Source: a virus | Taxonomy: Duplodnaviria; Heunggongvirae; Uroviricota; Caudoviricetes | Reading direction: 5' to 3' (one strand) | Virus record (IMG/VR): IMGVR_UViG_2778261509_000011 | Coordinates: 1-39,738 of that record | DNA: 39,738 nt | Shown: positions 33,301 to 36,300 of the stretch, piece by piece | Numbering within the stretch: the first letter of the stretch is position 1 | How the letters are laid out: each line of letters starts with the position of its first letter | Program-made: the position numbers

Positions 33301-36300
33301 GTTAAAAACTCTGATGGCAGCATTAGCACTGTGCGGAGCATGTCTACCAATATAGATGGTAGAGAGGTGCTGATTCCTACCGTTAGTGATGATGGTCGCA
33401 TTATGTCTGATGATGAAGCTATTGATAACTTCATGAGGACGGGAAAGCATCTTGGTATGTTCGACAATCCTGACGATGCCACTGCATATGCGGAGAGTCT
33501 GCACAACCAGCAAGCTGATGAATACCTCCCTAGGAAGAATCAAGCTACACAACAGCCTGTACAGCAAAGTACACAGGCAGCGCCACAGCAGCAAGGAGGT
33601 TTCATTTCCGACCTTGGCAATGCCGCGGCTGAAACTGGTCGCGGACTGGTGCAGGCTGGCGTGAACGTGGCAAACATACCTGCATCGGTTGCCGATGCTG
33701 TAACAAGCGCGGCGGCTTGGGCTGGCGGTAAACTCGGCATTGGCGATGGTACATATCAACCAGCGCCACGAGTAACAACGCAGGGATTAGAGCAGGACTT
33801 TGGCCTTCAGCAAGGCGCGCTGACTCCACAAACGACAGAGGGAAGGGTATTTGCTGAAGCATTGCCTTACCTCACTCCTGCTGGCGTTGAGAGAGCGGCG
33901 GTACAGGCACCAACACTTGCTGGTCGAATTGCTCAGGGGGCAACACGACTTCTCGCAGAAAACGCAGTTGGATCACTTGCTGCAAATAGTGCGAAAGATG
34001 ATGCGGAAGCACTCGCCACCGATTTAGGCGTTGGTGTACTTGCTGGCGGTGCTATTAACGCTGCCGGACGTGGATTAGGTGCTGCTTATCGTGGCGTTCG
34101 TGGTGCTATCGCGCCAGAAGCGCAGCAGGCTATCAGATTTGCAGAGCGTGAAGGAGTTCCTCTGCACACCACAGACCTGTTACAACCCACTTCCCGCGTC
34201 GGAAAAATGGCGCAGACTACAGCAGAAAATATCCCTCTGGCTGGCACAAGCGGAATGAGAGCAACGCAACAGGAAGCGAGAAGCCAGTTGGTGCAGAGAT
34301 TTGCCGATAAATTCGGTGAGTATGATCCAGCGGTTGTTATTGACAGCCTTAAAGCGAAAACATCAGGAATTCGTCGTGCCGCAGGGAACCGTCTTGAGCA
34401 AATTCAGAATGCAATGGCAGGAGTCAACATTCAACCTGCACGAGCAATTCAGCAGATTGATACTGAGATATCTAACCTGCAGAAGCTTGGTAAGGTCGCT
34501 GATAACGAGACGATTTCAAAACTTCAGTCATATCGTGATGAGCTTGTTCGCAATGCTGGTCCTGATGGTCCGGTCAATCTGGATTTGAAGCAATTAAGCG
34601 ATCTGCGCAGCCAGTTCAGAATGGACGTGAAGGGTGAGCGACCAGTGTTACCAAACCGTTCCGATGCCGCCATTCAGCGCGTTTACAAGGCAATGACTGA
34701 CGATATCAATGGTGCCATTGGTCAGAATCTTGGCAACGATACTCTCCGTAAATATCAGCAGGCCAATGCCGTCTACGCTGACGAAGCGGCGAAACTAAAG
34801 AATACCAGGCTGAAGAATGTTCTCATGAAAGGCGACCTGACGCCGGAAGTTGTCAACAACATGCTATTCAGCAAGAACAAATCGGAAATTAAGACTCTGT
34901 ATAACTCAGTTGGTCGTGTTGGTAGGGCGCAAATGCGCAATGGCATCATTGGAAAGGCGATGGAGAAATCAGGTGGTTCCCCTGACCAGTTCCTTCGGCA
35001 GCTTAACATCCTGCAAAACCAGACTGGCATCACATTTAAAGGTCAGGAAGCCGCTTATCTGAAAGGATTGAAAAACTACCTGCAATCCACGCAGCAGGCT
35101 GCAAAAGCGGCAGTAACAACACCAACAGGGCAGCAAACCATCCCGTTCATTATCGGGTATGGGACGGCAATGAACCCGGCGACAACTGGCGCAGCGGTAA
35201 GCTACGGACTTCTTACTCGCGCCTATGAGAGTGAGCCATTCAGAAATGCAATGCTCCGAATGGCAAACACCCCACGCGGATCAACAGCGTTTGAGAAAGC
35301 CATGCAGCAGGCGCAAAAGGCCATTAACGCCCTGACTCAAGGTGCCAAGTCTGATGCGTTGTCAGAATAGCTTCGCAAACACCAGGAACGTGCAAAAACC
35401 AAATATGTAGAACGCAATATTCAGCATATCTCTTTGCATAAATCCTCCGTAACTGATAGTTAGCTGCTGTCTTTTTTATATAGCTCTTTGAGCGTATCAA
35501 AGACAATTTTCTTAACCATATCAGATTGTTGTTCTGCCATACGCTCTGCATCGTCAATGTAAACTGATGCAGAGCTTTGTTTAGCCAATGATTCTTCAAT
35601 CGCTGCAATTATCTCTGAGTTCAGAGACCTGTTATTCATCTTCGCACGCTGTTTAATTTTCGCGTGGAGTTCATGCGGAAGTCTCAAGTGAAACTGCGCC
35701 TCGTCGTATTTGCTGTACATCCTTGATGCCTCACCAGTTGGGTGGAATGGCATCGTAACCTACTGGATAAATACTCAATAGTACCATTTCGGTATGCAAT
35801 CACATCATGGTTGCATCATATCATTCGTCTGGAGCAATGAAATGTCAGATATCACCGCAAATGTTGTGGTAAGCATGCCTTCGCAACTCTTCACTATGGC
35901 TCGTTCTTTTAAAGCCGTAGCCAATGGCAAAATTTATATCGGTAAAATTAACACTGACCCGGTAAACCCTGAAAACCAGATTCAGGTTTATGTGGAGAAC
36001 GAAGATGGTTCTCACGTTCCTGTTTCGCAACCAATCATCATTAACGCTGCTGGATATCCGGTATATAACGGACAGATTGCCAAATTCGTAACCGTGCAAG
36101 GCCATTCTATGGCTGTTTATGATGCGTATGGTACACAGCAGTTCTATTTTCCGAATGTGCTTAAGTATGACCCAGATCAACTAGAGCAGAGACTTTCCAG
36201 CAATTCCGGAGCATCATTAATTGGCACCGCATCAGGGCAAACTGTCCAGCAAAATCTTTCCGACCATGAGGAAAGATTTACTCAAAATGAAGACAATATT

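Follow-up and report, generated by a model that had tools for sequence, protein, structure and literature searches.

What does a repressor gene do in a prophage from which the genes it would be expected to repress are missing? In phage P22, Mnt represses arc and ant. The stretch of DNA analyzed here (39,738 nucleotides, positions 1 to 39,738 of IMG/VR record IMGVR_UViG_2778261509_000011; this whole stretch is referred to as the window) is a P22-like (Lederbergvirus) prophage, in which an mnt homologue stands alone between the homologues of gene 16 and gene 9, the latter being the tailspike gene. The 601 bp around this locus were 100% identical to E. coli strain ET665. An earlier note on this DNA had regarded the locus as a P22 immI region that lost arc and ant, leaving an Mnt that either controls the tailspike from the former ant promoter (Pant) or is a relic. 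Our analysis favors, with a probability of roughly 0.6, another explanation, namely that the locus is a minimal form of the "ant moron", the name given to the gene 16/gene 9 interval by Villafane et al. 2008 (PMC2629481). According to this explanation, mnt would be kept as an autoregulated orphan repressor cassette, Pant would have decayed, the tailspike would be expressed by late read-through, and a hairpin ahead of the tailspike gene would be unrelated to Mnt.

The mnt homologue was found as an open reading frame (ORF) on the minus strand at 35460-35720. Since the tailspike gene starts at ATG 35842 and mnt starts at 35720, the divergent spacer between them is 35721-35841, or 121 bp, and runs into the tailspike start as the earlier note had described. 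The P22 gene order quoted there (gene 16, sieA, mnt, Pant-arc-ant and gene 9) agreed with the annotated P22 record, and the absence of arc, ant and sieA from the locus was confirmed by tblastn searches with the three P22 proteins. Arc had no match in the window beyond the fold shared with mnt itself, SieA matched nothing across the window, and Ant matched nothing at the mnt locus, a protein with the Ant C-terminal domain being encoded elsewhere (14311-14991). No Rfam families, including sar, were found in 34800-36600 at an E value of 1 or below. The locus thus resembles mnt-only ant morons in having mnt without arc, ant and sieA, placed inside the late operon between the homologues of gene 16 and gene 9 and directed against that operon. 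The arc gene, ant with sar, and a strong rightward Pant overlapping the mnt promoter (Pmnt), which make up a complete immI region of the P22 type, were not present.

The mnt product of 86 amino acids has an N-terminal Arc-like ribbon-helix-helix DNA-binding domain (Pfam Arc PF03869 at 1e-14; PDB 1MNT at 3.4e-19 over residues 6-79) and a C-terminal tetramerisation helix (Pfam Repressor_Mnt PF11423 at 3.3e-14; PDB 1QEY at 1.7e-8 over residues 56-84), and this two-domain structure was also evident in the alignment. The start at 35720, with GAGG placed 8 nucleotides (nt) before the ATG, is the arrangement conserved with P22. An ORF of 97 amino acids beginning at an in-frame upstream ATG (35753) was considered and rejected; this ATG falls inside the predicted -10 hexamer of Pmnt, and its equivalent in Gally, phage L and locus L091 opens a short ORF that is out of frame or terminated.

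For the analysis of selection, 91 related mnt coding sequences were extracted from IMG/VR and GTDB loci. The ORF was intact in 89 of them, the other two having a premature stop (L036) and a stop at codon 5 (L093). Over codons 1-50, the ratio of nonsynonymous to synonymous substitution rates (dN/dS) was 0.045-0.09 against JEP4, VSe13, L092 and L089, and dS reached 1.5-2.7 in distant pairs, synonymous sites being near saturation. The DNA-binding half of Mnt was nearly invariant and the C-terminal half was mosaic. The mnt gene is under strong purifying selection.

Alignment with P22 immI, a check called for in the earlier note, showed that mnt and its control region, abutting the tailspike gene, are all that is left. 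It also pointed to another site for the operator than had been proposed. In the MAFFT alignment, the mnt operator of P22, annotated as a protein_bind feature (CTCAATAGGTCCACGGTGGACCT), matched column for column with CTCAATAGTACCATTTCGGTATG of the window. The candidate Mnt operator is therefore GTACCATTTCGGTAT at 35781-35795, a pseudo-palindrome with TACC/GGTA cores, and not the adjacent palindrome at about 35795-35815, which does exist as reported and to which the operator role had been assigned. The tailspike start is 46 bp past the candidate operator, whose centre is about 43 bp upstream of the predicted Pmnt start, as in P22. A single site of this type was present in each related locus, at a constant distance of about 60 bp upstream of mnt, and Buttiauxella locus L091 carried a perfect palindrome, GTACCATTTTGGTAC, at this position. 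In the Citrobacter locus L093 the site was retained with one change, yet mnt has the stop at codon 5 mentioned above. Within the 39.7-kb window, GTACCATTTCGGTAT was the sole exact match to the class consensus. No second exact operator was found there; matches with two mismatches occurred at 21849 and 26603, giving 3 operator-like matches in all compared with 0.72 expected, a number reached by 5 of 100 shuffles and thus not clearly above chance.

The operator half-sites varied together with the recognition strand across Mnt classes. Recognition strand HFNFR was accompanied by AGGTCCACGGTGGACCT (P22, epsilon34 and L095), QFNLR by AAGACCAC(C/A)GTGGTCT (phage L, ST160 and Gally), QFNFR by ATATCACGGTGATAT (L096), and QFHLR by GTACCnTTTnGGTAY (this window, JEP4, VSe13, L091 and L092). 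An inner CAC/GTG triplet accompanied Asn8 and CAT accompanied His8, which is a correlation and not an established recognition code. Compared with the P22 protein (Q-F-H-L-R in the window versus H-F-N-F-R), of the residues His6, Asn8 and Arg10 that go with the P22 site GGTCCAC-G-GTGGACC, only the Arg is retained, and the aligned site in the window is GTACCAT-T-TCGGTAT. On these grounds, the window Mnt appears as a member of the Mnt family with a specificity different from that of P22 Mnt. An Mnt tetramer most likely binds the candidate operator at 35781-35795.

Promoters were sought with a simple log-odds scan in which P22 served as the positive control, Pant (TTGACA-17-TATATT) scoring 16.0 and Pmnt (TTGAGA-17-TATCAT) 13.6. 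On the minus strand of the window, the positional homologue of P22 Pmnt was predicted at 35752-35778 with a score of 8.0 (-35 TTGAGT, 35778-35773; 15-nt spacer; -10 TACGAT, 35757-35752). All mnt-only lineages scanned had a leftward Pmnt homologue at the corresponding place in the alignment, among them JEP4, VSe13, L091 and L092 (TTGTTG-17-TACGAT, 8.5), phage L (TTGTGG-17-TATGAT, 9.8) and Gally (TTGAGG-17-TAAGAT, 11.0). Across 42 distinct window-type haplotypes, the Pmnt -10 was invariant and the -35 was altered once.

The two arms of the palindrome flagged in the earlier note (35794-35802 and 35808-35816) are complementary at 8 of 9 positions. Equally good inverted repeats appeared in 8-12% of shuffles of the 121-bp spacer, so that the palindrome alone is within chance. 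In the 42 haplotypes it was the most variable non-coding block, with 1.09 substitution-haplotypes per site compared with 0.33 for the operator and 0 for the -10. As plus-strand RNA, 35794-35816 is predicted to form the hairpin AUGCAAUCA-CAUCA-UGGUUGCAU with 9 pairs, one of them G-U, the T/G position of the window being a mismatch in a DNA palindrome and a wobble pair in plus-strand RNA. Pairing was kept in 97% of cells across 11 variants; one compensatory change of GC to UA was observed (L089), and several one-sided changes pair only as plus-strand G-U, C-G or U-A. P22, phage L, Sf6 and BTP1, the last without a moron, likewise have a hairpin at a distance of about 25 nt from the tailspike start. 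That of P22 (CCGTAGC-CAT-GCTGCGG) is 1.3 kb from the mnt operator (Omnt), and that of Sf6, a phage without mnt, is a 9-pair leader stem with z = -2.9. Because the sequence varies while the plus-strand pairing persists, and because equivalents occur in phages without mnt, 35794-35816 is probably a tailspike-leader RNA hairpin and not an Mnt site. Leader hairpins of this kind most likely are a general feature ahead of the tailspike genes in P22-like phages and have no connection with Mnt.

These results are consistent with the following course of events. Between gene 16 and the tailspike gene, an immI-type cassette would have been pared down until only mnt, the promoter driving it and its operator were left. 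A functional Mnt would bind the candidate operator immediately upstream of the Pmnt -35, and from the operator-Pmnt geometry, which is the same as that of Omnt/Pmnt in P22, we infer that Mnt regulates its own synthesis in the lysogen, where mnt would be expressed; the sign of this autoregulation is likewise a matter of inference. Mnt binding reportedly stimulates Pmnt in P22, a finding attributed to Vershon and colleagues in 1987. The rightward partner promoter, Pant in P22, would have decayed, and tailspike mRNA would come from late-operon read-through across mnt. Both strands between gene 16 and the tailspike gene were scanned for intrinsic terminators, and none convincing was found.

Several observations weigh against this explanation. 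The sole visible target of Mnt in the prophage is its own promoter, and an autoregulatory loop without another target leaves the selective retention of mnt unexplained. Pmnt of the window lineage has a poor 15-nt spacer and was below the threshold in a separate consensus scan. The candidate operator is not perfectly constrained, since a G in its right half-site is replaced by T in several haplotypes. The window lineage has a Pant-like sequence with 8 of 12 matches and ideal spacing exactly at the homologous position. Finally, covariation support for the hairpin is modest, the observed values being reached by 15 of 500 and 28 of 500 shuffles.

The Pant-like sequence bears directly on the suggestion that Mnt now represses a surviving rightward promoter of the Pant type, the tailspike, or its leader, being silent in the lysogen and turned on early after infection or loss of Mnt. 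In this degenerate remnant (ATGGCA-17-AATACT; 35747-35775, plus strand), A2 and T6 of the -10 are retained, and its transcription start would fall at the candidate operator; moreover, transcripts started at Pant in P22 can extend as far as gene 9, and a role of the ant moron in modulating tailspike dosage has been suggested (PMC2629481). Its score was only 6.2, however, compared with 16.0 for P22 Pant, a value no higher than those attained by chance matches in these sequences, and the consensus scan, for which the remnant was below the threshold, found no rightward promoter. Across lineages the best rightward matches scored 3.4-6.6 at non-conserved positions. No equivalent of Pant was found in JEP4, VSe13, L091, phage L and Gally, sister lineages retaining mnt and the operator, and haplotypes with an altered putative -10 (AACACT and AATACC) occur; making tailspike alone would also be of no obvious use. 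Control of the tailspike by Mnt is therefore unsupported, since Pant is an 8/12 remnant not conserved in sister lineages, and we consider it quite unlikely. That mnt is instead a decaying relic, a non-functional remainder of a deleted immI region without a present role, has been raised for phage L mnt by the phage L authors (PMC8022706) and would fit the nonsense mutations in L036 and L093 and the weakened right half-site of some haplotypes. It is contradicted by the low dN/dS at saturated synonymous sites, by the 89 intact ORFs, and by the operator and -10 kept across Escherichia, Salmonella, Buttiauxella and Serratia loci, and is very improbable.

Strong selection on a repressor without a cis target would be accounted for if Mnt gave superinfection immunity in trans, either by repressing antirepressor promoters under Mnt control in relatives that are incoming or co-resident, thereby shielding the prophage from induction, or through an unterminated mnt transcript antisense to late mRNA at the gene 16/tailspike junction. 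P22 Mnt serves to keep ant off, and prophage-expressed exclusion genes such as sieA occupy the same moron in P22. In BTP1, a leftward RNA of about 500-800 nt from the same junction excludes BTP1 superinfection (PMC7067206), and no intrinsic terminator was predicted after mnt in the window. On the other hand, the operator type was found ahead of arc or ant in 0 of about 90 related loci, and a pattern scan of IMG/VR (TTGACA, a -10 and the operator) gave no arc/ant locus. Five matches to a consensus -35 and -10 followed by the operator type were obtained in that scan, all of them in low-GC phages that are unrelated and lack homologues of Mnt, Arc and Ant. In one such contig (L126, 2088-2135), three tandem GTACCAAAATGGTAC palindromes surround a consensus promoter; it has no Mnt homologue, and the core is shared by chance. 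Both antirepressor-like genes of the window, which lie in the nin region on the plus strand, were without a nearby operator; they encode a protein with ORF6N and P22 antirepressor C-terminal (P22_AR_C) domains (14311-14991; 83% identical to P22 Ant residues 199-300) and a protein with Rha and ANT/KilAC domains (15066-15788). Given these two genes, antirepressor-like functions have not simply disappeared from the phage altogether. As to the antisense variant, Rho could terminate the mnt transcript, and there was no sequence similarity to STnc6030, the BTP1 transcript, outside gene 16; an antisense role for the window mnt transcript is pure conjecture. Overall, immunity in trans appears unlikely. 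That the mnt cassette as such is a prophage-expressed anti-superinfection device instead of a cis regulator, in which Mnt shuts the antirepressor promoters of related invaders having the same operator class or an antisense transcript acts like STnc6030, is a more doubtful proposal; if true, the Mnt/operator specificity classes would have diversified as immunity types.

A second conserved structure lies on the mnt side of the spacer. The inverted repeat GATGCC-N18-GGCATC (35725-35754), with an inner CACC/GGTG stem, occupies the place of the P22 Pant -35. The mnt ribosome-binding site (GAGG, 35729-35732, minus strand) lies inside this repeat, which also overlaps with the Pmnt -10. Every mnt-only moron examined had the repeat, but P22 and epsilon34 lacked it. 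The repeat folds at z = -2.4 on the plus strand, and 3 of 11 pairs had compensatory changes, with a covariation term of only -0.08. Assignment of a strand from wobble pairs was dropped, the signals being contradictory. Possible roles for the repeat are a second site for protein binding and a leader hairpin masking the ribosome-binding site.

The flanking genes were also analyzed. The gene 16 homologue (ORF at 33091-35370, plus strand), a DNA ejection protein gene, is the last late gene before the moron. Its C-terminal 200 amino acids were 36-37% identical to P22 gp16 and 98-100% identical to homologues in related loci, whose records label it a DNA transfer or lytic transglycosylase protein. 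The spacer from its stop to the mnt stop is 35371-35459. The first 70 bp or so of this spacer (35371-35440) were about 90% conserved in Sf6, Gally and vB_EcoP-720R6, that is, with and without mnt, which may reflect a recombination linker or a functional 3' element belonging to gene 16. Query positions 1-141 aligned at about 90% with Sf6 and Gally, among others. The tailspike gene (35842-37824, plus strand) encodes a P22-type head-binding domain (Pfam Head_binding, 1.3e-66) followed by a GDSL/SGNH esterase-like receptor domain (Lipase_GDSL_2, 1.3e-9) in place of a beta-helix endoglycosidase, suggesting that the tailspike may be a deacetylating receptor-destroying enzyme. Its ribosome-binding site GGAG (35831-35834) and start ATG (35842-35844) belong to the arrangement CTGGAGCAA...ATG kept in all relatives. 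In some relatives, a homing-endonuclease gene of the HNH-AP2 type (about 180 amino acids, on the mnt strand) is inserted directly after tailspike codon 5 (ATGTCAGATATCACC|...), with a new tailspike start about 600-700 bp further on. The insert was located at 2830-3369 in L012 and 2827-3369 in L031, and was also seen in L045, L074, L090, L040, L048, L051, L054 and L061; JEP4 (L004, 3270-3460) has a similar orphaned tailspike stub, ATGACAGATATT. An ORF at 38566-39738 on the plus strand, running off the end of the window, resembles a DacD-like D-alanyl-D-alanine carboxypeptidase (penicillin-binding) as judged by eye, and the prophage end and attachment site are therefore expected within 37825-38565.

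The orphan mnt is widespread. The 601-bp query was matched over its full length in at least 141 complete E. coli genomes, and several hundred more, including O26:H11 strain 11368, have the part comprising mnt, the spacer and the tailspike. The same layout occurs in Sf101, IME10, VSe13, JEP4, Gally, ST160 and phage L. Naming of the gene varies among records: RefSeq copies of P22, ST64T, ST104, ST160, epsilon34 and Sf101 (NC_027398) often call the Mnt homologues "partition protein ATPase", the GenBank record of Sf101 (KJ832078) has "putative chromosome segregation ATPase", and the IME10 record leaves mnt unannotated. The ATPase names look like a propagated mis-annotation.

The arrangement is not unusual, having already been published as a variant form of the ant moron (PMC2629481, PMC8022706). 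ST64T, ST104 and Para1 hold only mnt plus one unknown gene in the interval, and Sf6 holds nothing there (PMC2629481). Since mnt-only ant morons are already on record, the window locus is a further member of a known variant, in its smallest form without an extra ORF, and by its predicted operator preference it is a new specificity member. What the analysis adds is a corrected operator assignment (35781-35795), a distinction between the operator and the tailspike-leader hairpin found across P22-like phages, and the recognition of the orphan mnt as a known, widespread and selectively maintained element. Why a repressor without a visible target is retained in hundreds of E. coli prophages is a question raised before for phage L.

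Comparison with P22 immI shows a common position between gene 16 and gene 9, a leftward two-domain mnt (49% identity), and a candidate operator positioned alike with respect to a leftward promoter whose -35 and -10 align. The window differs in having no arc, sar, ant, sieA and orf59a, in the decay of Pant to 8/12, and in the replacement of the arc operator (Oarc) by the GATGCC/GGCATC repeat; the recognition residues are Q/H/R instead of H/N/R, and the operator is GTACC..GGTAT instead of GGTCCAC.GTGGACC. BTP1 has the leftward prophage-expressed transcript STnc6030 at the same gene 16/tailspike junction (Owen et al. 2020), but it has no mnt ORF, and STnc6030 starts inside the tailspike gene. The mnt-only morons on record include those of the Salmonella phages L, ST64T, ST104, ST160 and SE1 (Villafane et al. 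2008; phage L genome paper of 2020), in which mnt is divergent and about 120-135 bp upstream of the tailspike gene without arc and ant. Morons of the phage L type have the same inverted repeat, Pmnt, palindromic operator, hairpin and tailspike ribosome-binding site, but carry a small orf62 or orf64 between gene 16 and mnt that is lacking in the window, and belong to another Mnt specificity class (QFNLR with AAGACCACCGTGGTCTT). Sf6 shares the 3' end of gene 16, about 70 bp after it, the tailspike ribosome-binding site and the hairpin before that site, whereas the mnt cassette of about 390 bp is entirely absent, showing that Mnt is not needed for the tailspike and its leader hairpin to function. 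Further phages compared were Sf101 of Shigella flexneri 7a and IME10 of E. coli, which differ from the window in their tailspike receptor domains and gene 16 homologues and carry the same cassette, with DNA 97-98% identical over mnt, the spacer and the tailspike start.

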